Of a stretch of 47,986 bases of DNA, positions 1-47,986 are shown one piece after another. The notes under the pieces are model-generated. The model was not told where the DNA came from and ran no database searches. It worked only from the letters and a program-made list of their open reading frames with translations. This DNA is from a virus. Each line of letters begins with the position of its first letter. Position 1 is the stretch's first letter. A program made the translations under genes and the position numbers. The DNA lies in IMG/VR virus record IMGVR_UViG_3300048856_000013, positions 1-47,986 of that record. One strand, 5' to 3'.

Positions 1-38
1 TCTCGAGGCGCTACCATAATGGGATGAGCACTGAGACC
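1..38. repeat. Terminal overlap copy 1 (identical to 47949-47986)
   Basis: tctcgaggcgctaccataatgggatgagcactgagacc occurs at both window ends. Confidence 0.95.
12..24. promoter_or_regulatory. Operator-like dyad O3, TACCA-TAA-TGGGA (same site as 47960-47972)
   Basis: Matches the T(G/A)CCA-N3-TGG(C/T/G)A motif seen five more times. Its last base is the A of the ATG at 24. Confidence 0.5.
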
Positions 39-3912: not shown

Positions 3913-4721
3913 TGGCCGAGAGCCGCCCTGGCCTGTCCTTCGAAGAGTACGCCGCCGCCCCTGGCCTCTCCACGTCGATGCTGAAGCTGTTCGCGGAGGC
4001 CCCGGCCAAGGCGCGGTTCGCTGCGGAGCGGGAAGAGACGCCCGCCATGCTGGCTGGCACGCTGCTGCATACCGCGCTGCTGGAGCCGGCGGCCCTGGAA
4101 GACCGCTTCGACGCCACGGACCTGGATCGCCGCGGCACCAAGGCCTGGGCCGAAGCCGAGGAGAAGGCCGGCAACCGCCGGCTGGTGAAGCGAGCCGAGT
4201 TCGAGAAAGCGCTGCGTATGCGGGATGCGATCTTGCGCCATCCGGTGGCGGCGGAACTGCTGACTGGCCCGCTTGTGGTGGAGCAATCGCTGTGGTGGCA
4301 CGACGAAGCCACCGGCCTTCTGTGCAAGGGCCGCCCGGACGGCATGCGCCGCGATATGCGGGTTCTGGTGGACGTGAAGACCACGCAGAGCGCCGCGCCG
4401 CACGAGTTCAGCCGGTCCTGCCTGAAGTATCGCTACCACTGGCAGGAGAGCCGGTACCGCGCCGGCACCAAGGCGGCTGAGGGCTGGGAGCCCGACGCCT
4501 TCGTGTTCTTGGCTGTGGAGAGTGAGGGGCCGCACCTCGCGGCAGCCTACGAACTGAGCCCGCGCGACTTGGCGCTGGCCGATGAGCAAGTGGCCGACAT
4601 GCACCGGAAGTGGGCGGCTTGCGAGGCGGCTGAAGCCGCTGGCGCCGACCCCGTGGATGCATGGCCTGGCTATCCCAACAACCTCGCGACCCTGGACCTG
4701 CCGTCCTGGGCGCATGCCTGA
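3912..4721 (+). CDS. RecE-like PD-(D/E)XK exonuclease (DUF3799-type)
   Basis: Start refined to ATG 3912 (TGATG overlap). Motif GRPDG...VLVDVKT. Immediately upstream of recT. Confidence 0.85.
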   Translation: MAESRPGLSFEEYAAAPGLSTSMLKLFAEAPAKARFAAEREETPAMLAGTLLHTALLEPAALEDRFDATDLDRRGTKAWAEAEEKAGNRRLVKRAEFEKALRMRDAILRHPVAAELLTGPLVVEQSLWWHDEATGLLCKGRPDGMRRDMRVLVDVKTTQSAAPHEFSRSCLKYRYHWQESRYRAGTKAAEGWEPDAFVFLAVESEGPHLAAAYELSPRDLALADEQVADMHRKWAACEAAEAAGADPVDAWPGYPNNLATLDLPSWAHA

Positions 4722-4734
4722 AGGATCACCCCAG

Positions 4735-5820
4735 ATGGGCGTGACAACGACCAAGCCCGTGATGTCCCTGGCCGAGATGCGCACGGCCGGCAAGCAGATT
4801 GCCCGCCAGGCCGGCGGTAGCACTGTGCAGGCCTTCTTCGAGGCCAAGAAGGACACCCTGGCGGCAGTGCTGCCGAAGCACATGACGCCGGACCGCATGT
4901 TGCGGATCGCCATGGGCGCGCTGCGGACGACACCGAAGCTCATGGACTGCACCACCGAGAGCCTGTTCGGCGCCGTGGTGGCGGTGTCTCAGCTCGGCCT
5001 TGAGCCGAACACCCCGCAGGGCCATGCCTACCTGCTGCCGTTCGAGAAGCGGGCTAAGGGGCAGGACGGCCAGTGGTACACCGAGCGCACCGACGTGCAG
5101 GTCATCATCGGCTACAAGGGCCTTATCGACCTCGCACGGCGCTCCGGCCAGATTGTCAGCATCTCGGCCCGCACCCGCTGCCGCAACGACGAATGGCGGA
5201 TGGTGCTCGGCACCGCCGACGAGATCCACCACATCCCGGCGGAGGGTGATCGCGGCGATATCGTGGGCTTCTATGCCGTCGCCAAGCTGAAGGACGGTGG
5301 CGTTCAGTTCGAGTACATGTCGGAAGCCGACGTGAACAAGGTGAAGGCGCAGAGCAAGGCGGCCAAGAGCGGCCCGTGGGTTAGCCACTTCGAGGAGATG
5401 GCGAAGAAGACCGTCGTCCGCCGGCTCTGCAAGATGCTTCCCATGAGCATCGAGCTGGCGCGCGCCACGGCCATGGACGAGATGGCTGAGGGCGGACGGG
5501 ACCAGCAGTTCAACACTGTCCTGGATGCTGAGTGGAGCCCTGTCGATGACATGACGGCTGACGACGACGCGGCCGGAAGCGATCAGCAGAAAGCCGCCAC
5601 CTTCGCCATCAAGGGCGACAAGGGCCATATCGAGTACCCCAGCATCGAAGCCTGGGAAGCCGAGTGGACCAAGATCGCCGGCAGCCTGAACCCCGCGCAG
5701 TTGCAGCGCGCCCGCGAGATGAATGGCGCCCTGATGGCGGAATACGCCGCCGACCACCGCGAGGCCGTGATGCGCGTGCAGGCCGCGCTGGACGCCAAGA
5801 CGAAGGGAGACGCCGCATGA
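4735..5820 (+). CDS. recT: RecT-family single-strand annealing recombinase
   Basis: Start refined to ATG 4735 (AAGGA 9 nt upstream). RecT signatures QLGLEPN, AYLLPF, GYKGLIDLARRSGQI. Confidence 0.9.
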   Translation: MGVTTTKPVMSLAEMRTAGKQIARQAGGSTVQAFFEAKKDTLAAVLPKHMTPDRMLRIAMGALRTTPKLMDCTTESLFGAVVAVSQLGLEPNTPQGHAYLLPFEKRAKGQDGQWYTERTDVQVIIGYKGLIDLARRSGQIVSISARTRCRNDEWRMVLGTADEIHHIPAEGDRGDIVGFYAVAKLKDGGVQFEYMSEADVNKVKAQSKAAKSGPWVSHFEEMAKKTVVRRLCKMLPMSIELARATAMDEMAEGGRDQQFNTVLDAEWSPVDDMTADDDAAGSDQQKAATFAIKGDKGHIEYPSIEAWEAEWTKIAGSLNPAQLQRAREMNGALMAEYAADHREAVMRVQAALDAKTKGDAA

Positions 5821-8039: not shown

Positions 8040-8690
8040 ATGGTGCAGACAATCGTTGTGGCGAGCCAGAAAGGCGGAGTGGGCAAGACTACGCTCACCA
8101 GCCATCTGGCCGTTGAGGCCGAGCGGCAGGGCGTCTCGCCGGTCGCGGTCATCGACACCGATCCCCAGGCGGGCCTCTCTGGATGGTTCCGGGTGCGGCA
8201 GCCGGAGACGCCGGCTCTGGTGCAAGTGCTGCCGGAAGGCCTGAAGGCGACGCTGGACAAGCTGGCGGAGGGCGGCGTCCCCCTCTGCATCATCGACACG
8301 CCCCCGGCCATTACAGAGAGCATCGCCAGCACGGTCGCTCTGGCTGACCTAGTGCTAATCCCGGCACGTCCCTCGCCAAATGACCTTCGCGCCGTTGGCG
8401 CCACGGTGGACATCGTGGAAGAGGCGGGGCGCCCCATGGTGTTCGTGGTCAACCAGGCAATCGCTCGGTCCAAGATCAAGAGCGAGACCATCAAGGCGCT
8501 GAGCCAGCATGGGCCGCTGGCTCCTGTGGAGATCCACCACCGGATCGACTTCGCCACATCCATGACGGATGGCCGCACTGCCGGTGAGCTGGATCTGAAG
8601 TCCGCCAGCGCCGTCGAAATCACCGAACTCTGGACCTACATCGCAGACCGGCTCGCCCGGAGGAAACGCTATGGCATCGCCTCCCGCTAA
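8040..8690 (+). CDS. parA: ParA/Soj-type partition ATPase (small, type Ib-like)
   Basis: Deviant Walker A SQKGGVGKTT, VIDTDPQ, IIDTPP. GGAG 3 nt upstream of the ATG. Confidence 0.92.
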   Translation: MVQTIVVASQKGGVGKTTLTSHLAVEAERQGVSPVAVIDTDPQAGLSGWFRVRQPETPALVQVLPEGLKATLDKLAEGGVPLCIIDTPPAITESIASTVALADLVLIPARPSPNDLRAVGATVDIVEEAGRPMVFVVNQAIARSKIKSETIKALSQHGPLAPVEIHHRIDFATSMTDGRTAGELDLKSASAVEITELWTYIADRLARRKRYGIASR

Positions 8691-10330: not shown

Positions 10331-10954
10331 ATGAAGTGGTTACGCCCCCTCATTATAGCAACGGCCGCGCTCGCTGCCACGGTCACAACGGCGTCTGCGG
10401 ATGTGATTTATACCTTCACGCAGACCGGCCCCCTGAACAGCCGCAGCTTCAACTTCAGTGCCCGGTTGGTCCTGACCGATGAAGCGGAGAATGGGTTTGA
10501 CCTCAACCTGCGGGTCAATCCCAGCGACGGCAGCCCTACGTCCTACACGGCCACCAACGTTCTGGACTTCAGCGTGGCGTTCAGCTCCATCATCCAGGCC
10601 CCGCTCACCTGGGATATCGCGGATCTGCTGGCGATGGATGCCCCAGGCCGGTCGAACGCGGCCCGGCATGGGATCAGCCTGAGTGGCGACGGTGCGGGGG
10701 TGAATGGCTTGCTGGGCCTGGACGACATGAGCAACACGCTTCGGCTGACCGTGGAGGGGCTGAGCTTCAGCGGCTGGTTCGCTTCGGACGACGGATACCG
10801 CTTCGGGTGCCAGATGGCTCCCTGCCAGATTGCGGGTGTGATCGAGAAGACCATCGTCACGGCAACTGATGTCCCTGAGCCCGCTTCGTTGGCGATGTTC
10901 GGCGTGGGTCTAGCAGGGCTGGGGCTAGTCCGGCGCCGGCGCGGCAACACCTAG
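10331..10954 (+). CDS. Secreted PEP-CTERM sorting-domain protein (moron)
   Basis: AGGAGA RBS. Signal peptide MKWLRPLIIATAALAATVTTASA. C-terminus DVPEPASLAMFGVGLAGLGLVRRRRGNT. Confidence 0.85.
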   Translation: MKWLRPLIIATAALAATVTTASADVIYTFTQTGPLNSRSFNFSARLVLTDEAENGFDLNLRVNPSDGSPTSYTATNVLDFSVAFSSIIQAPLTWDIADLLAMDAPGRSNAARHGISLSGDGAGVNGLLGLDDMSNTLRLTVEGLSFSGWFASDDGYRFGCQMAPCQIAGVIEKTIVTATDVPEPASLAMFGVGLAGLGLVRRRRGNT

Positions 10955-11805
10955 GCCGCCGACTTCGCCGCATTGAACCGCGCCAGCCTGTCCTGCAGCC
11001 CGTTCAGCCCGCCGTTGATGATCCGCGTGCAGGTGGACACGTCGCCGAGGTAGGCTGGCTGGATCAGGCCGCGGGTGCGCCAGAACCACAGCGCCGAGGC
11101 GACGGCACCAGACGGGGTGCGGACGTAATCCGCCGCACCCTCCGCGCTGACGCCAAGACTGTCTCCGAATGCCGTGTAGTTGCTCCGGCCGGTCAACTGG
11201 ATGAGCCCGCCGCCCCGGAACCGCCAGCCGTCACCGGGCTCGGTGTTCCCTAGCTTCGCCCTCCCCCAGGCGCCGCCATAGACCACATTGGCGATGGCCT
11301 CCTGGTCGGCTGGATGATCGGCGGTGCGGCCGATCCGCTGGGCCTCGGCCTGAGTGATGCGGTGAGAGCCGAAGGCCTGCACCAGAGCCTCGGCGCGGTA
11401 GTTCAGGTTCTCCGTGATGGAGGCGAACCCGCCGCTCTCATGCGCGAGCTGCGCCACCAGCATGCAGACCCCGTTGCGGCTGGTGATGCTGTTCACCGGA
11501 TCGCCATCGACCATGACCGCGGCGTCGAGCAAGGGCGCGTAGGCAGCCGCGAGCACGGGGCTGGCCCCAACCGCCCTCAGCAGTGCCGGCGTGATACGGG
11601 TCCGCGCCACGGGCGCCTCCACAGGGATTGGATTGAGGTTCGCTAGGGCGGGAGGAACCTCCCCCACCCCGTAGACGGGCACCACCTGTGCGGGGTGATA
11701 GACCCCGGGCACGGGCGCCAGAACGCTCGGCGCTTGGGCGGTGCTGGCGGCCGGAGCCTCCCGCCCCAAGCCCAGGAAAGCGAACAGGCGAGAGAGCAGC
11801 GTCAT
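10951..11805 (-). CDS. GH19 (chitinase-like) endolysin with hydrophobic N-terminal signal/anchor
   Basis: Start refined to ATG 11805 (ATGA overlap). LVAQLAHESGGF, NLNYRAEAL, FRGGGLIQLTGRSNY. N-terminus MTLLSRLFAFLGLG. Confidence 0.88.
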   Translation of the reverse strand: MTLLSRLFAFLGLGREAPAASTAQAPSVLAPVPGVYHPAQVVPVYGVGEVPPALANLNPIPVEAPVARTRITPALLRAVGASPVLAAAYAPLLDAAVMVDGDPVNSITSRNGVCMLVAQLAHESGGFASITENLNYRAEALVQAFGSHRITQAEAQRIGRTADHPADQEAIANVVYGGAWGRAKLGNTEPGDGWRFRGGGLIQLTGRSNYTAFGDSLGVSAEGAADYVRTPSGAVASALWFWRTRGLIQPAYLGDVSTCTRIINGGLNGLQDRLARFNAAKSAA

Positions 11806-12191
11806 TTCTGCACCACCACCGCCGGCGCCTCGGCCGCCTTGGCCTGCACGACCCATTGATCCCAGGCCGCGTGCGCCATGGTGGTCAGTACTTCCCGGCT
11901 CGGGCCGAGCTTCGCAACCGTGTCGGGGATAGAGGTGAGCACGTAGGTCACGACCGCCTGAATGGCGGCACCCGGGCTCTGGATCTTGCCCACCTCATAG
12001 TCCTTGTAGGCGGCCACCGCGCCACGGGTCAGGGCGCCGAGCAGAAGCGCCATGTCCTTCGAGTGGACGCTGGCCTGAAGTGCATCGCGCACCGGTCCAG
12101 GCAGCTTGGTCACGATCCAGCCGCCCACGGCGAGCAGCACCGGCAGCGCCAGATGCTCAACGAGCACCGGCGCGAAAACGGTCCAGTCCAT
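11802..12191 (-). CDS. Membrane protein, holin/antiholin candidate
   Basis: N-terminal TM (LALPVLLAVGGWIVT) plus further hydrophobic segments; directly upstream of the endolysin. Confidence 0.6.
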   Translation of the reverse strand: MDWTVFAPVLVEHLALPVLLAVGGWIVTKLPGPVRDALQASVHSKDMALLLGALTRGAVAAYKDYEVGKIQSPGAAIQAVVTYVLTSIPDTVAKLGPSREVLTTMAHAAWDQWVVQAKAAEAPAVVVQK

Positions 12192-21544: not shown

Positions 21545-22222
21545 TCAGATCGGATTGATGTTGTCGGAGGATGCGCGCGCGTAGGCGGCCTGCTCATAGC
21601 CAGTCGCACCGGCTTGCTCGGCGTACCCGAAGAACTGCGGCGTGAAATAATTGAAGGTGAACCGCACCCCGGCAGCCCGTGGCAGCAGGTCGCGGATCAA
21701 GAACTCTCGCTGGTCATCGGGTGACGGGATGATCCCTACCCAGATAGCGAAGGCGCCCGGCCCTGTGTCGCGGACAGACACAAGGTCGGTCTTGAAGACG
21801 TGCCGAACCGCGGCAACAATTTCCGCCGCCGTACCATGCCCGTTGTTCAAGGCGATCTTCGCCCGGATCATGGCCCGGTATTCTTCGTCAGGCGCCGTGT
21901 AGCTCTGTGCCGTTGCCTCACCATCGGCGCGGTATCGGGCCACGCCATAAGCGCGGCCGGCCGGCTGCTCAGCATAGCCGAAGTAGGCGAGGTACAGACC
22001 AACCGGCACATCCCGGGCCACGCCGACGATGGAGCCGATCAGGTCAAGGCGGGCGCCCTCAGCGCCGTCCAGGGTGCGGTCGGAGCCGAGCGCATCCAAG
22101 GCCGACGCCGCAGCCGTCAAAGGCCCATAGAAGGCGCGGACGAACCCCTCGGTCTTTGGCTTCCCCACATGCTGTCGGAGAATGTGGCTCCAGGCGATAT
22201 CTCCCTGCTGCTCACGCGCCAT
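21545..22222 (-). CDS. Baseplate-associated protein (DUF2612/XkdU-position)
   Basis: Immediately downstream of the J-like gene, sharing 1 nt with its stop. Confidence 0.65.
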   Translation of the reverse strand: MAREQQGDIAWSHILRQHVGKPKTEGFVRAFYGPLTAAASALDALGSDRTLDGAEGARLDLIGSIVGVARDVPVGLYLAYFGYAEQPAGRAYGVARYRADGEATAQSYTAPDEEYRAMIRAKIALNNGHGTAAEIVAAVRHVFKTDLVSVRDTGPGAFAIWVGIIPSPDDQREFLIRDLLPRAAGVRFTFNYFTPQFFGYAEQAGATGYEQAAYARASSDNINPI

Positions 22223-23676
22223 CAGGACACCTGTGTGCGCGTTAAGGCAAAGCGGGCCCTCTGCCTCGGGCCGATCGTGATGTCATTGCTGGAGTAGGCT
22301 CCCGCGGCCGGCGCGCTGACGCTCACAACCGCAGTCAGGCTCACCCGAGCCACGCCAGAGGTTGCGGCAAAGACCGCAGCCGCAATGCGCTGCAGGAGGA
22401 CATCCTCTCCAACGCCCAGCGCGTTCCCAGCCTGCACCATGGCCGCGGCGGCACGGGCGGCCACATCCCCAGGGACGGTCTCTTCCGAACTGGTGACCAG
22501 CGTCGCTTTCAGCCACACAAGCTGATCTGCGGGTCGGCTGAAGCGGATGGTGTGCGTGTATCCAGTCTCGTCCACGTAGGGGCGCGACGTGGTGCCGTAG
22601 GATGCGATGCCAGCGGGCTTCAGCCGGTAGATTGCCGCAGCGATAGCAGCATCATCGCCACCTTCGATCACCGCCTCGACCGAGTGGGGTGGGCGGCCAT
22701 CCCCATCCGTGCTGTCAGTCGTGTTCTCGTAGACCGCCAGGCTCGTCAGTCCGACGATGTCCTGCAACAGGTTCGCCCTGATGGACGGCATGGTGCCGGC
22801 GCCTAGGCGATAGACGCCAGTTGCGTAGCGGTCCCGCAGTTCCTCATCCGTCTCCAGGTTGGTGCCGAGGGTGGCGTCTTGCGGCTGCTGGACAGCGCTC
22901 CAGCCCGGCGTGGGGGTGATGATGCGAGTGAGGCTGCCGGCAGGAGCCGCAATAGGCCCATCCTCGTCTACAGAGACCAGGGCCGGGCTGGCCAGGGCTG
23001 CGACCGTCAGCGTATCCGACCAAGTGACCGCGAAGCTGGTGTTGCTCACGATCCGGAATGCCGCGCCGCCGGTGGAGACAGTGGCCCCAAGGCCGGCAAG
23101 CTGGTTCGCCAGATTGGTGGCAACGAAGGTCGCGCTGTTACCGGCAGCAGCCGTGTAGGAGACGGCGGTGCCGTTGTAGGTCACCGAGTAGACGGTGCCC
23201 TCATTGACGGTGGCCGGCACGTTGAACAGGACATTGGCAGCGCGGTCTCTGGTAATCACCGTGTCCGAGGTCGTCACGAACCGGGCGGGGACAGCTTCGC
23301 CCTCCGCGAGGTAGGTACTTTCGATGACCGAGCCAATCTCAACGGTCGTCCCCTGCGTTCCGAAGAGCAGGACCCGGGCGGTGGATGGCGTGGGCTGGAT
23401 GCGGGTCACGCCGGCATAGCTAACGGCGAAGTCCAGGGCCAAGCCCTGCGCGGTGGCGGGGTAGGCCGACAGGTATACCGCCTCAGACAGTTCCCACAGG
23501 GCAGCCTCGCGCTCCGCGAAAACTGAGACGAACTGGCCGCTCAAGCTGTCCGGGGTCTCGTCGAAGGGTTGGCCAATCCGGGCCCGCAGGTCGTCGAAGA
23601 TGGACCGGCGGATTTCCGGCAGGCGCATCCGGTTGAAGCCGCCCGGCGTGAGGCCGTAGCTAAGGGTTTCGGACAC
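22222..23676 (-). CDS. Baseplate J-like wedge protein
   Basis: Size, position and J/gp47-like sequence pattern; GTG start 5 nt after GGAGG. Confidence 0.85.
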   Translation of the reverse strand: MSETLSYGLTPGGFNRMRLPEIRRSIFDDLRARIGQPFDETPDSLSGQFVSVFAEREAALWELSEAVYLSAYPATAQGLALDFAVSYAGVTRIQPTPSTARVLLFGTQGTTVEIGSVIESTYLAEGEAVPARFVTTSDTVITRDRAANVLFNVPATVNEGTVYSVTYNGTAVSYTAAAGNSATFVATNLANQLAGLGATVSTGGAAFRIVSNTSFAVTWSDTLTVAALASPALVSVDEDGPIAAPAGSLTRIITPTPGWSAVQQPQDATLGTNLETDEELRDRYATGVYRLGAGTMPSIRANLLQDIVGLTSLAVYENTTDSTDGDGRPPHSVEAVIEGGDDAAIAAAIYRLKPAGIASYGTTSRPYVDETGYTHTIRFSRPADQLVWLKATLVTSSEETVPGDVAARAAAAMVQAGNALGVGEDVLLQRIAAAVFAATSGVARVSLTAVVSVSAPAAGAYSSNDITIGPRQRARFALTRTQVS

Positions 23677-23726
23677 GGGGCCTCCGAAGATATGAATGGC
23701 TGGGCGTCAGAGGAGACGAACTAAGG

Positions 23727-24065
23727 ATGGACCTTCTGGATCGGATCCATCGCTGGCTTCGGCGGAGGGAGTTTGAGCGCCGGAAGGCAGCCATGACGGT
23801 TTCAGGGCCTGCTCTGACACTGGCTCAACAGCGCTCGCGCGCAGCAGAAACTGGCGCGACTGAGTACATGTGGTGCAGCGTCGGCGATGAGCGGGTCTGT
23901 AAGGAATGCCGCAAGCGGGATGGTAAGTTCTTCCGGTACGACGATGCCTCTAGCGTTCACCCCGGAGAATGCCCCGGGTGCACATCTTCAAGGTGCCGAT
24001 GCCGCGCGTCGCCCCTTCTCCCAGGGATGACGAAGGCCGAGTTGCGCCGACTTAACCGGCAGTAG
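23727..24065 (+). CDS. Stand-alone MuF-like C-terminal domain paralogue with CxxC...CxxC
   Basis: WCSVGDERVCKECRKRDGKFFRY...HPGECPGCTSSRCRCRASPLLPGMTKAELRRLN aligns with the C-terminus of 35681-36517. Opposite strand to the late operon, with more A/T-ending codons. Confidence 0.75.
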   Translation: MDLLDRIHRWLRRREFERRKAAMTVSGPALTLAQQRSRAAETGATEYMWCSVGDERVCKECRKRDGKFFRYDDASSVHPGECPGCTSSRCRCRASPLLPGMTKAELRRLNRQ

Positions 24066-24085
24066 TGCTGAGTGGGGCAGATATC

Positions 24086-24319
24086 ATGGTGAAATGGCTT
24101 ATTGCACTGATCGCGGTAGCGTCGGCGGGAGCCGTGGCGCTTCCGATAGCGGTGGGCAACACACTCGACCCCTGCGAAGCGGCGGTTAATTCGTATCTGG
24201 CCCGGCGCCCACCACCCGCCGGCATGGCTGATATTGCCAGAGGGATGATGCTTGAGGCGCTCAGGAGCGGCGGAATTATCGAATGCTACAGAGCCCTGGT
24301 GAATGAGGCGGCCAACTAA
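24086..24319 (+). CDS. Small exported/membrane-anchored protein
   Basis: MVKWLIALIAVASAGAVALPIAVG signal/anchor, two Cys in the mature part. The track ORF starts at 24065 (GTG); ATG 24086 preferred. Confidence 0.6.
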   Translation: MVKWLIALIAVASAGAVALPIAVGNTLDPCEAAVNSYLARRPPPAGMADIARGMMLEALRSGGIIECYRALVNEAAN

Positions 24320-24687
24320 CCCACTGTAAGTGAAGCTTTCACGAGCCCTTCAAGTGAACGGGCACTGAATTCCACCGTGGCGGCGCGGGTCTGGGGATTG
24401 AGCCCCAGGGCGAACGTCTCGACGGCCTGCACGCTCTGCACATCGAGGATCTGGGCGCGCAGGATCGCCTCGATAATCTCCGCCTGGCGCACCTTCCCGA
24501 GGATTTCCTCCAGGTACGGTACGCCATGGGCGTTATCCAGGAACCATTCCCCGCGCCATGTCCGTAGTCGGATGCCGATGGACTGGCCTACCCGAGCGGC
24601 GCCGTCTAATGCGGTCAAGTTCAGCCCCTTGTCGCCAGCGCGGAACACCATGTCACGGCTGGCCGGATCAAGCGCCAGGTCAATCAT
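24316..24687 (-). CDS. Baseplate wedge protein, gp25/W-like (DUF2634/XkdS-type)
   Basis: Start refined to ATG 24687 (ATGA overlap). GQSIGIRLRTWRGEWFLDNAHGVPY pattern. Confidence 0.75.
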   Translation of the reverse strand: MIDLALDPASRDMVFRAGDKGLNLTALDGAARVGQSIGIRLRTWRGEWFLDNAHGVPYLEEILGKVRQAEIIEAILRAQILDVQSVQAVETFALGLNPQTRAATVEFSARSLEGLVKASLTVG

Positions 24688-25292
24688 GCGACAGGCCCGC
24701 TCGTCTGAGCGGCGCCGCTCTGAACGCCACCATGTCGGTGGGTGGATCCGACATTGAGCCCGTCGTGTGTAAGGGTGCCGCCAGTCTGAGTAATGCCGCC
24801 GGCCGTCATGACCCACGAAATGCCGCCCACACTGATCTCGATGGACGCCTCGGTCATGCGGATCTTGGAGGCACCGAACGACAGAACCGCGCCGGACGTG
24901 TCCACCGCCGCGACATTCCTACCGCCGGCGGGATAGGCCACGGCATCAGTCATGTCGAAGCGGCGCGGGTCGTCGGGAGCCGCGTCATTGTCTTGTAGCC
25001 AGCCATCCAGACTGCGCTGGCTGAACTGGAGCCAAACCTGATCGCCGGGCTTCACCGGCATCGTCAGCACGGCGCCGCCCATTGAGGGCCAGAGGATCGG
25101 CACCTCGGCAATGGTGGGTGCCGCCAATTCCGTGCCGTCCGCCACCCGCTTCGGCAGGGTTGGCCGCACCACGGCCCGGTTTCGGGCCGCGTCGAACTCC
25201 ACCACCACGCCCGGCGCGCTGGTGTTCATCTCGCCCATGATGGACCTGATGCCATTCTCCATGGCATCGAGCATCCGGCTCAGGTCCTCCAT
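24684..25292 (-). CDS. Baseplate central spike / assembly protein V-like (Gp138 N-terminal-like)
   Basis: GVVVEFDAARNRAVVRP...GDQVWLQFSQRSLDGW OB-fold-type pattern; position. Confidence 0.75.
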   Translation of the reverse strand: MEDLSRMLDAMENGIRSIMGEMNTSAPGVVVEFDAARNRAVVRPTLPKRVADGTELAAPTIAEVPILWPSMGGAVLTMPVKPGDQVWLQFSQRSLDGWLQDNDAAPDDPRRFDMTDAVAYPAGGRNVAAVDTSGAVLSFGASKIRMTEASIEISVGGISWVMTAGGITQTGGTLTHDGLNVGSTHRHGGVQSGAAQTSGPVA

Positions 25293-35680: not shown

Positions 35681-36517
35681 TCACGCCGCCGCGTTCAGCA
35701 GCTTCAGTTCCGCCTCGGTCATGCCCGGCAGCACCGGCGAAGCCCGGCAACGACACCGCACGTCATGGCCCGGATGCCCGGTCCCTGCCGGAGGCTTGGC
35801 CCAATCGAAGAACTTGCCATCATGGGCCCGGTGAGAGGCCCGCACCCGCTCATCGCCCACCGTCTGCCACTGGTATCGGGTGACCCCAATGGCCCGCTGG
35901 CGACGCTGCGTCAGGTCCGCGTTCAGTTTCGCGATCTGGTCCCGGGCGATCAGTTCCGCCCGGCTGTCACCGACCCCAAGCCGCTCGGACACAATGCCCT
36001 TCAGCGTACGTAGGCTGGTCCCCTGGCTCACCGCCTGAGTGACCTGCTGGCGGATCTGATCCACCACGCCCTGAGGCACCGATTGGATCAGCGCCAAGTT
36101 CGCCTGTTCCCAAGCCGCCATCTGGTCGGCCAGCCAAGGCTCGCCGCGCAGCACGTCCACCCCGTAGGCCTGCCGGACCAGCGCTCGCCATTCCGTCAGG
36201 TTCGTGTTCGCTGCCCGGAGGCCAGCGAGCCGCATGACCGTCTCAGTGGCCCGCACCTGCCCGGTGAGGCGATCCATCACCCGCAGGAGCAGTTGAGCCA
36301 GCAGGTCGGCCCAGCCCGAAGCGCCAGGCTGCGGCGCGTCATCGTCGCCGCGGTAGTCGGAGGCGGGGGCCAGAAGAAAAGGCCCGTAGGTGTTGAACTC
36401 GGCCCTTAGTTCGGCCCGGAGAGCCGCTACCAAAGACCGCAGGGCCGCCCGATAGGTCACCTCGGCCGCAGCCGGGTAACGCATGGGGCGCGGCTTACGG
36501 CTCCGGAGGCGGTTCAT
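35681..36517 (-). CDS. Head morphogenesis protein, Mu F / SPP1 gp7 family
   Basis: C-terminus WQTVGDERVRASHRAHDGKFFDW...HPGHDVRCRCRASPVLPG; follows the portal. Confidence 0.85.
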   Translation of the reverse strand: MNRLRSRKPRPMRYPAAAEVTYRAALRSLVAALRAELRAEFNTYGPFLLAPASDYRGDDDAPQPGASGWADLLAQLLLRVMDRLTGQVRATETVMRLAGLRAANTNLTEWRALVRQAYGVDVLRGEPWLADQMAAWEQANLALIQSVPQGVVDQIRQQVTQAVSQGTSLRTLKGIVSERLGVGDSRAELIARDQIAKLNADLTQRRQRAIGVTRYQWQTVGDERVRASHRAHDGKFFDWAKPPAGTGHPGHDVRCRCRASPVLPGMTEAELKLLNAAA

Positions 36518-37820
36518 CGTCGTCTGGCATCACCACCACTGGCGCCTCGCCCTGGATTTCCATCTCAGGCCAGCGCTTGGCGGTGTAGGCCCGCCCCTCT
36601 TCAGGGGTGATGTATTGCGCGTCGCCAAGGGTAACGATGGCTTCCACCTCAGCCTTCTTGGCGTCGGCGCGGATCTTCTCCGCCTCGGCCGCTTCCTTCG
36701 CAGACGGGCTCCACAACGGGTTGAACACCAGCCGCCAGCGCTCTGGTTCGCGGACCTTCAGCTCCTTCTGAGCCCAGATCAGCCCGACGAAGCGCTCCAG
36801 AGCCGGCCGCAGTGACCGCTCCTGGATGGTCGTGAGGCGGCCGTGGTAGATGCCCTGCTCGCCCGTACCGCTGTTGCCAAGGCCCGACAGGCCTTCACCG
36901 AAGAGGATCGGGACCGGCATGGCCGCAGAGGCCGCCAGTGCCGTCCTGAAGCCGCCCAGGACCGCATCAATGCCAGTCAGGCTGCTGTCGAGGATGGAAA
37001 ACTCGTCCTCACCATCCACGGCAACGGTCGTCTCGATGCTGCGCACCAAATCGGTGAGGTTCAGGCGCTCCATGACGGCCTGCTTGCCGTCAAAGACCAC
37101 CCGGCCTTCGGCGTCTTCCATGCGCTGGGTGATGGCTTCGGCCATCCCCTTCATCTTGTAGATGGCCTGCTGCTTGCGCCGCAGGATCTCCTTGGTCAGC
37201 CGCAGCGCCTGCCGATACCGCAGCAGGTCCGGCAGCGCGCCCTCAAGGGCAGAGCGGCCCACCCACGGGATCGTCTGCGAGCGCCGCGCCGAGTAAGTCA
37301 GAGGATCGCCAGGCACGCGCAGCAGGCGGGTCTCATGGACCTTGAACTGATCGCCGGCAGGCGGCGTCACGTCGTACCACTCGGGGTCGCCGTAATTGGC
37401 CAGCCGAGCGTCGCGATAGCGGGCGGCTGAAGGTGTCAGCGCCGTGACTGGGTAGGTCTTCAGATCCGCGATCAGGCTCAGGCCTTCCTCGCGCAGAGGG
37501 CTATCCAGACCCGCACCGTCCGCCGTCAGCAGCAGGATCGCACCGCCGCCACAGAGCCTCGCCCAGCGCGCCGCGTCGGTGAAGTGCTGGATCGCATCCA
37601 GCCGGTCCACCTCGGACAGAACCGTGTTGTCCTCGTCGCCCTCGATCTCGAAGCCCTTGGACAGCGCGTCCTCGGCGGGGCGATCAACGATAACGGCGGC
37701 AAGCCCGTCCTTGGCGTAGAGGTCTTCGAGCGAAGGGGCAGCGCCCTCGCCCTGGCGCTCGCGGGAGCGCATCAGCCCACTGACAACCTCGCCGTAGTAG
37801 TCCTGGCGAAGCTCAGCCAT
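36495..37820 (-). CDS. Portal protein
   Basis: 441 aa between TerL and MuF; 8-nt overlap with the TerL stop. Confidence 0.85.
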   Translation of the reverse strand: MAELRQDYYGEVVSGLMRSRERQGEGAAPSLEDLYAKDGLAAVIVDRPAEDALSKGFEIEGDEDNTVLSEVDRLDAIQHFTDAARWARLCGGGAILLLTADGAGLDSPLREEGLSLIADLKTYPVTALTPSAARYRDARLANYGDPEWYDVTPPAGDQFKVHETRLLRVPGDPLTYSARRSQTIPWVGRSALEGALPDLLRYRQALRLTKEILRRKQQAIYKMKGMAEAITQRMEDAEGRVVFDGKQAVMERLNLTDLVRSIETTVAVDGEDEFSILDSSLTGIDAVLGGFRTALAASAAMPVPILFGEGLSGLGNSGTGEQGIYHGRLTTIQERSLRPALERFVGLIWAQKELKVREPERWRLVFNPLWSPSAKEAAEAEKIRADAKKAEVEAIVTLGDAQYITPEEGRAYTAKRWPEMEIQGEAPVVVMPDDDEPPPEP

Positions 37821-47948: not shown

Positions 47949-47986
47949 TCTCGAGGCGCTACCATAATGGGATGAGCACTGAGACC
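47949..47986. repeat. Terminal overlap copy 2 (identical to 1-38)
   Basis: Exact 38-nt match to the window start. Confidence 0.95.

Follow-up and report, generated by a model that had tools for sequence, protein, structure and literature searches.

What is a second MuF-type gene doing among the baseplate genes of a phage that already carries a canonical MuF head protein? The question is raised by IMG/VR virus record IMGVR_UViG_3300048856_000013, a DNA of 47,986 nucleotides (nt) referred to in the following as the window. In it, two minus-strand genes, one baseplate J-like and one for a gp25/W-like sheath initiator, lie on either side of a 639-nt gap in which the longest minus-strand open reading frame (ORF) is 57 amino acids (aa), and which carries two plus-strand genes, ORF1 and ORF2 (Table 1). 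An earlier note, made from the sequence alone, had correctly described this gap as free of minus-strand ORFs of 60 aa or more, and had taken ORF1 for a cysteine-substituted paralogue of the phage's own MuF. With 614 muf genes in 611 phages, a second muf-type gene is unusual (PMC5576092). The evidence gives good support to a moron-type insertion that carries a member of an undescribed short, cysteine-rich, membrane-associated offshoot of the MuF superfamily. Tentatively, we read the stretch as a two-gene moron that was acquired horizontally, sits in a cargo slot of an E217/Pam3-type myophage baseplate module and has products that may act at the inner membrane in exclusion or interference.

ORF1 shares with the MuF/SPP1 gp7 family (PF04233, TIGR01641) the C-terminal core W...GDERV...DGK.F...PG...CRC. 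It scored 46 bits against the Pfam profile Phage_Mu_F (PF04233; gathering score 29.6) and 47.4 bits against TIGR01641 (cut-off 39.65), so that the match proposed by the earlier note, and with it a stand-alone MuF-domain protein, stands above both curated thresholds. The PF04233 match spans profile positions 23–109 of 112. The conserved N-terminal helix of the profile (positions 1–22, "ARTE/ARDQ") is absent, and alignments show nothing in ORF1 or in the other short members that corresponds to the LIARDQ helix of canonical MuFs. An AlphaFold2 (AF2) model of ORF1, built with 43 homologues, had a mean predicted local distance difference test (pLDDT) score of 90.7 and showed a helix at residues 2–25 followed by a small alpha/beta domain. 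Foldseek searches with this model, which the earlier note had called for, gave a divided answer: the structural neighbors in BFVD were MuF-type minor capsid proteins, and no relative was found in the PDB, either by Foldseek or by sequence. One further BFVD entry, A0A0N7CFG4 from Salmonella phage 36 (116 aa, "putative DNA primase"), resembled the ORF1 model over 100 columns with a TM-score of about 0.5 and 26% identity; it may be a further stand-alone relative, or else the zinc-binding domain of a primase with a similar fold.

HMMER, run exhaustively against 1.84 billion cluster representatives, found 392 matches at E ≤ 1e-3, and 149 sequences retrieved from the 150 best cluster representatives were used as a census. 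A CxxC motif in a short protein was found in 77 of the 149 (median 141 aa) and RxxH in a protein of canonical length in 38 (median 281 aa); CxxC in a long protein occurred once. Here, we define class B by CxxC at the RxxH position, a cysteine-bearing insertion before CRC, a length below about 230 aa and the lack of the N-terminal half of MuF. ORF1, with cysteines at residues 58, 61, 82, 85, 90 and 92, has all three cysteine elements (C58/C61, C82/C85 and C90-R-C92) within 112 aa. Across 43 class B members, W49, C58, C61, C90, R91 and C92 were invariant, and ORF1 keeps every invariant residue of the class, whose signature in the alignment reads G.T.Y.W.S.GDERVC..C...DGK.F.W..PP..GHPGE..CC..G.CRC.A.P. 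The cysteine-bearing insertion before CRC comprises 6–7 residues; canonical MuFs lack it, have R..H at the first motif and possess an N-terminal helical half, including the LIARDQ/IARTE helix, that is missing from the short class. A class B profile scored its members at 100–150 bits and canonical MuFs at no more than 85 bits. Together, these observations give good support to ORF1 being a complete member of a distinct, unnamed MuF-like class that keeps only the C-terminal half of the MuF domain.

The cysteine changes that the earlier note had seen, from RASH to CKEC together with a cysteine-bearing replacement or insertion before CRC, are thus real, but they were not created in this phage, being class-wide in the 77 of 149. 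A degenerate DNA scan of IMG/VR for GDERVCxxCxxxDGK also turned up nine full-length MuFs with CxxC...HPxCRC. As the cysteines are class-wide and CxxC is common in full-length IMG/VR MuFs, we rejected the idea that they are a lineage-specific invention. The zinc-type CxxC...C(C)...CRC cysteines may bind zinc in ORF1 and stiffen the half-domain. In a separate observation, IMGVR_UViG_3300037067_010333 (reverse-strand frame 4078–5559) encodes a full-length MuF with an insertion of about 270 aa between CxxC and the C-terminal CRC; the insertion is intein-like in appearance and ends ...THN directly before CRC.

Public databases name class B members "hypothetical protein", "phage minor head protein" or "SPP1 gp7 family...", and neither PHROG nor PADLOC has a model dedicated to the class. 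A description of it was not found in the searchable literature, and Jamet et al. (2017) do not describe it (PMC5576092). ORF1 itself is not among the called genes of an identical public contig, from either an M1 or an M23 start. That contig (Logan SRR35925188, positions 4756–5094) is independent, 100% identical, and has ORF1 intact. Scanning IMG/VR with ORF1 gave no match, and neither ORF1 nor ORF2 matched the PADLOC 2.0 models.

The evolution of ORF1 bears on whether it is a decaying remnant. Compared with its relatives P0001 and P0002, the proportion of non-synonymous differences (pN, 0.23–0.34) was far below that of synonymous differences (pS, 0.72–0.76). These values, the retained class invariants and the confident AF2 model show that ORF1 is a real gene and a member of the family, one that is conserved and was overlooked by automatic annotation. 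In the remnant explanation, ORF1 would be the truncated leftover of a P0001/P0002-type gene and ORF2 a chance ORF. The nearest relatives of ORF1 (P0001, P0002, P0058 and P0068) do have, at the N-terminus, a further domain of about 100 aa that is missing from ORF1, and the absence of ORF1 from the public gene calls and of any homologue of ORF2 would also fit. On the other hand, the minimal plan of helix, basic linker and domain is common to dozens of family members of 90–150 aa, every invariant residue is intact, and a Shine–Dalgarno-like GAGGAG lies 11 nt before the ORF1 ATG. Combined with the low pN and the AF2 model, this makes a remnant very unlikely, although these counter-points apply to ORF1 and not to ORF2.

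We then asked how ORF1 relates to the MuF gene of the same phage. The earlier note had aligned ORF1 with the C-terminus of the resident MuF, and BLASTP bore this out, with 43 of 81 residues identical (53%, E 8e-23); the C-terminal tail of ORF1, ...ASP(L/V)LPGMT.AEL..LN, is nearly identical to that of the resident protein. The longest exact word common to the two genes, GGCGATGAGCGGGT (14 nt, at 23883), is also present as reported. However, it is a single word sitting on the conserved GDERV motif and has no evolutionary signal, and we do not take it as evidence of recombination. Identity between the two genes was 69%, 67% and 33% at codon positions 1, 2 and 3, respectively, and the third base was the same in only 18 of the 43 identical residues, indicating that synonymous sites are saturated. 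In phmmer searches, the best partners of ORF1 were four short proteins (P0001, 120 bits; P0002, 84; P0003, 75; P0004, 68), ahead of the resident MuF at 64 bits, while twenty canonical MuFs outranked ORF1 when the C-terminal domain of the resident MuF was the query. With saturated synonymous sites and the closest relatives of each protein found elsewhere, ORF1 is neither a recent nor a special paralogue of the resident MuF, contrary to the earlier note. A recent duplication or gene conversion within the phage was rejected for the same reasons, namely the third-position identity, the 18 shared third bases and the non-reciprocal phmmer ranks. As judged from these comparisons, the two proteins are ancient members of one superfamily, with no duplication within the phage.

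ORF1 also differs from canonical MuFs in size and position. It has 112 aa against about 180–300 aa or more, lacks the N-terminal helical half, has CxxC for RxxH and the cysteine-bearing insertion, and starts with an amphipathic or transmembrane (TM) type of segment. A canonical MuF gene lies directly downstream of the portal gene in the head module (PMC5576092), as the resident gene does; ORF1 sits within the baseplate module, 12 kb away from the portal gene, and is read from the opposite strand, antisense to the late genes. It is found in a phage that already has a canonical MuF, and its family also occurs in non-phage elements.

The N-terminus of ORF1 is one that recurs in the class. Among 74 short members, 55 have a hydrophobic N-terminus, either an amphipathic MGFFDWLF-type motif or a genuine TM helix, followed by a strongly basic linker, a layout that would place the cysteine-rich domain in the cytoplasm. 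In ORF1, a predicted amphipathic helix (residues 2–25, positions 23,730–23,801) precedes a basic linker. The hydrophobic moment of its N-terminal 11-mer, 1.04, was matched by 0.6% of shuffles.

ORF2 has a signal/anchor segment, as the earlier note had proposed, with a Kyte–Doolittle 19-mer maximum of 2.49 at residues 5–23 and two cysteines in the remainder; public gene calls have the 77-aa form that starts at ATG. These features are consistent with a small protein that is predicted to be exported or anchored. Database searches with ORF2 returned only itself (P0151, from the same phage), Pfam, PHROG, NCBIfam and PADLOC gave no family for it, and no homologue was found beside other class B genes; it is tied to ORF1 by adjacency alone. 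Signal-peptide or TM proteins beside class B genes in the window, in four other loci (L030, L022, L005 and L003) and in the phage Mulock, described below, had suggested that a class B gene and a secreted partner form a conserved two-gene cassette. This idea is weakened by the partners being mutually non-homologous, by the Mulock partner, gp20, being kept whatever the cargo, and by the orphan status of ORF2.

Next, we considered the site of insertion. The first and last 38 nt of the window (1–38 and 47,949–47,986) are identical, which suggests that the window is a circular-assembled, probably complete phage genome of about 47,948 bp. The host of the island is a temperate phage that encodes a terminase, a portal, the resident MuF, a DUF2213 protein, a major capsid protein and an E217/Pam3-type contractile tail. 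Only two relatives could be identified for it. The first, a prophage of Acetobacteraceae bacterium AT-5844 (L002/L006), has a W gene 62% identical to that of the window, which forms the other flank of the slot, and holds a different island of 2.65 kb between W and J, with a Rha+KilAC antirepressor and a secreted 196-aa protein and without a class B gene. The second (L003/L004) has at the same junction an island of 3.35 kb that encodes AntA, two Arc-like proteins, a TM protein and a class B protein of 219 aa; the last is P0002, 50% identical to ORF1. As in the window, the class B gene is antisense to the baseplate genes and adjoins the 3' end of W. Among distant relatives, W and J are contiguous in Mulock and in E. 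coli prophages, and in one metagenomic locus (L129) they are 58 nt apart, which agrees with the earlier statement that the two genes are normally adjacent. The W–J site is therefore a cargo hotspot, with close relatives holding differing inserts at the same junction, and the island is not an ordinary late gene conserved in most relatives. Scanning genomes with J gave a single locus only, and scanning metagenomes with a J alignment gave none.

The base composition of the island is foreign. The GC content at third codon positions (GC3) is 0.68 in ORF1 and 0.67 in ORF2, compared with 0.74–0.90 in eight structural genes, in line with the earlier remark that codons ending in A or T are commoner in the island, and local GC dips to 0.59–0.60 from about 0.65. 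Morons are recognized by insertion between genes that are adjacent in related phages, deviating base composition, their own promoter and terminator, and expression from the repressed prophage (PMC3594210); the island shows the first two traits. At its borders, nothing beyond short chance-level repeats was found in a search for flanking repeats or att-like sites. A blastn search of the region against cultured phages gave no match, and Rfam had zero matches within the window.

At the other border, the stop codon of the W-like gene overlaps that of ORF2. Called mechanically, the W-like ORF starts at a GTG at 24,816 (24,316–24,816, 166 aa) and overlaps the spike gene; its start is more likely the ATG at 24,687 (123 aa), in agreement with relatives and the public call.

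Table 1. Features of the island and of related genes in the window.
Feature	Position	Strand	Remarks
Baseplate J-like gene	22222-23676	-	PF04865, phrog_6; slot flank; 70% identical to L002/L006, 65% to L003
Spacer from J start codon to ORF1, 50 nt	23677-23726	+	Shine-Dalgarno-like GAGGAG at 23710-23715
ORF1, 112 aa, short Cys-rich MuF-like (class B)	23727-24065	+	N-terminal amphipathic helix (predicted), then MuF C-terminal half-domain
ORF1 cysteine cluster	23898-24002	+	C58/C61 (CKEC), C82/C85 (CPGC), C90/C92 (CRC); presumed zinc site(s)
ORF2, 77 aa, signal/anchor segment and two Cys	24086-24319	+	Orphan; 84 aa if started at GTG 24065
gp25/W-like sheath-initiator gene, 123 aa	24316-24687	-	phrog_120; PF10934 in public call of identical contig
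Resident canonical MuF head protein, 278 aa	35681-36517	-	PF04233 89.8 bits, phrog_324 242 bits
Portal gene	36495-37820		PF06381; resident MuF directly downstream

Outside the island, two further regions of the window were noted. A plus-strand gene at 10,331–10,954 encodes a 207-aa protein with a PEP-CTERM sorting motif, an unusual phage cargo, and the adjoining minus-strand gene (10,951–11,856) has a weak, below-threshold match to GH19 (chitinase-like). The early region (24–575, 705–1244, 4582–5820 and 8040–8690) encodes two repressor-like proteins with helix-turn-helix motifs, a RecT recombinase and a ParA-like ATPase; the phage may live as a plasmid prophage.

A second slot came to light when metagenomes were scanned at the DNA level with a degenerate, class-specific motif. 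About 12 of 120 loci were true, the rest being mostly out-of-frame chance matches in GC-rich DNA, and eight of the roughly 12 were syntenic. At L129, the order is tape measure, Dit-like, Pam3 gp18 plug, hub gp41, a 109-aa signal-peptide protein, class B, gpV spike, W, J and DUF2612. The class B protein has 150 aa at this locus and 145–150 aa across the eight, and at L129 it is TM-anchored. This module is that of Mulock, a cultured temperate Klebsiella myophage (PMC6856289), whose class B protein is gp21 (QFG06723.1; 148 aa, TM-anchored), encoded between hub and spike. The tail proteins of the window are 27–38% identical to those of Mulock. Gp21 resembles ORF1 in its class B signature, small size and location in a variable slot of a homologous baseplate module. 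Identity between the two is 33%, in the domain only, and gp21 has a true TM anchor where ORF1 has an amphipathic helix; its gene lies in the hub–spike slot and runs with the late genes, whereas ORF1 is antisense at W–J. It is annotated only as "hypothetical protein" and reaches 17 bits with PF04233, below threshold. Gp21 and its cluster of 99 members, from Klebsiella, Raoultella and E. coli chromosomes, were the only cultured-phage representatives of class B that we found.

The hub–spike slot is variable as well. A hub-to-spike region is present in 412 of 5426 complete E. coli genomes, and the class B version was covered in only 4 of them. Three alternatives that were inspected (L149–L151: NZ_CP007265.1, NZ_CP027599.1 and NZ_CP122929.1) keep a gp20-like gene, 57–71% identical over the aligned region, followed by other cargo. 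This cargo is a DUF4236 protein whose gene lies on the opposite strand and whose C-terminus has a TM helix, a DUF4282 protein with two TM segments, or a 190-aa protein together with a YafO-family toxin. Two metagenomic proteins of 332 aa, P0028 and P0171, are fusions of DUF4236 (PF14020), a TM2 domain (PF05154) and class B, which links class B to DUF4236, an occupant of the same slot in E. coli prophages. The gene that stays in place, Mulock gp20 (L145, 8615–8953; phrog_3443), encodes a signal-peptide protein of about 110 aa with two invariant cysteines. Its homologues in L129, L056, L116, L033, L039 and L149–L151, and those of all Mulock-type modules, lie between the hub and the variable slot, an exported protein being a fixed component of the baseplate operon here.

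Class B might be expected to serve these baseplates as an accessory factor, helping E217/Pam3-type tails in assembly at the membrane or in delivery of their own genome, and selection would then favor its place in that module. It does occur in homologous baseplate modules of two lineages whose tail proteins are 27–38% identical (at W–J in the window and L003, and at hub–spike in Mulock and about eight metagenomic loci), and the Mulock-type gene runs with the late operon. An accessory role nevertheless seems unlikely: both slots are variable, the class B version is absent from 408 of the 412 E. coli prophages with the module and class B itself from the close relative L002, the gene is antisense to the late operon in the window, and class B is also found in a conjugative element and in islands that have no tail genes. 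In two distant lineages, then, class B genes fill swap-in slots and do not belong to the baseplate core.

The spread of the family across mobile elements was evident from several other contexts. A class B gene is located in the cargo region of a conjugative element with TrwB, TrwC and Fic (L066), another directly downstream of an OLD-family ATPase-nuclease gene (L110), one beside a Wadjet system, and one, in Halomonas, in a 15-kb element with integrase, AlpA, AAA_25, Rha and Bro-N genes. A tblastn search of plasmids returned two canonical MuFs only.

AntA, Arc, Rha, KilAC and Bro-N are frequent neighbors of class B genes, and this raises the possibility that the proteins are small zinc-dependent regulators that bind nucleic acid and act on lysogeny control or on the DNA of other elements, not on virion parts. 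The strongly basic linker before the domain and the DNA-binding activity of SPP1 gp7 (PMC6316719) would suit such a role. Against it, the frequent TM anchors and the TM2 fusions argue for a membrane site, a Pfam search detected no DNA-binding family in ORF1, and the island in the window includes no regulator. We consider a regulator improbable.

Alternatively, ORF1 might be packaged in the virion: with its half-domain docked to the portal, the small protein would enter the capsid and be ejected into the next host. Portal binding brings gp7, the MuF protein of SPP1, to the procapsid, toxin delivery has been proposed for MuF fusions (PMC6316719, PMC5576092, PMC5512222), and in polyvalent proteins MuF is regarded by Iyer et al. 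as a virion-targeting module (PMC5512222); the C-terminal tail that ORF1 has nearly in common with the resident MuF would fit. However, ORF1 ends 20 residues after CRC and has no effector domain, the real TM anchors of many members are incompatible with capsid loading, the family is present in non-phage elements, and the window gene is oriented against the late operon. The 40 best matches of Mulock gp21 were all class B, with Mulock's own MuF not among them. Because gp21 has no special likeness to that protein, mimicry of the resident MuF is not a family trait, and as a general explanation it was rejected for Mulock. Packaging is thus quite unlikely, and the earlier idea of a packaged effector adaptor fits poorly with the TM anchors and the non-phage elements.

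Nor does the island match the MuF polymorphic toxins, which it resembles in having a MuF-type domain in a temperate phage, often with a small ORF after it. Such toxins are recognized by a stretch of 100 aa or more beyond the MuF domain (Jamet et al. 2017, PMC5576092), whereas ORF1 has no C-terminal extension and no further domain was detected; ORF2 has a signal/anchor segment, unlike a cytoplasmic immunity protein. A closer parallel is gp15 of HK97, an exclusion protein of the inner membrane that is small and is encoded by a moron within the tail operon (PMC3594210). Like gp15-type morons, the island is an add-on between tail genes that adjoin each other in relatives, with deviating composition, small, putatively envelope-associated products and interchangeable cargo. 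The island differs in that there is no sequence relationship to gp15 and that one product has a domain derived from a virion protein.

Returning to conflict or interference between elements, which the earlier note had also proposed in the form of a decoy or assembly-interference factor, we regard this as the most plausible reading of ORF1 function. The other occupants of the slots are small membrane proteins, a toxin–antitoxin module and antirepressors, which points to inter-element conflict at the inner membrane, as do the defence-system neighbors elsewhere and the spread over phages, conjugative elements and islands; the HK97 gp15 precedent fits an exclusion role. In the mechanism we have in mind, the cassette would be transcribed independently of the late operon and expressed in the lysogen. 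The N-terminal amphipathic or TM segment and the basic linker would put the MuF half-domain at the cytoplasmic face of the inner membrane, with ORF2 as an unrelated small envelope protein, and the products would act there against competing phages or elements. The half-domain may bind the partners of canonical MuF, the portal and/or DNA, so that an incoming or assembling rival would be sequestered or misdirected, resulting in superinfection exclusion or assembly interference. SPP1 gp7 binds the portal strongly, binds DNA and aids the initiation of infection (PMC6316719), which makes capture of a partner by a tethered half-domain a reasonable mechanism. In its broadest form, with class B proteins as membrane-tethered mimics of the MuF core that are exchanged by phages, conjugative elements and defence islands and block rivals by capturing a MuF partner (portal or genome end), the proposal is rather doubtful.

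Several observations weigh against an action at the membrane through MuF partners. ORF1 has no TM segment (Kyte–Doolittle maximum 0.09), and its membrane association is predicted from the amphipathic helix and by analogy with its relatives. An envelope protein is encoded next to only about half of the class B genes sampled, and the neighbor in Mulock, gp20, is a conserved gene of the module and not a specific class B partner. Neither a plus-strand promoter nor an intrinsic terminator was found in the island, the promoter scan covering the sigma-70 type only; this is a further difference from HK97 gp15. When 43 class B members were run against PADLOC, one weak match to Cas8b (E 0.0089) was obtained, which is not credible. 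That the half-domain binds what MuF binds is an assumption, since the biochemical function of MuF is unknown (PMC5576092), and the N-terminal half of MuF, absent from class B, may be the part that contacts the portal.

MuF is among the commonest phage head proteins, and a compact, zinc-type version of it has been copied into many kinds of mobile element. This version is hidden from annotation, being called "hypothetical" or, wrongly, "minor head protein", falling below the Pfam threshold in the case of gp21 and going uncalled in the case of ORF1. Two swap-in cargo slots, W–J and hub–spike, are now documented in E217/Pam3-type baseplate modules, and the competition of class B for these slots with small membrane proteins and toxin–antitoxin genes makes it a candidate new player in phage–phage or phage–plasmid conflict. 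With Mulock in culture and related prophages in E. coli, the hypotheses are directly testable. Class B may also give a handle on what the MuF core binds and, if the proposed mechanism is true, would represent a new form of exclusion or abortive assembly that arose from a domesticated fragment of a virion protein.

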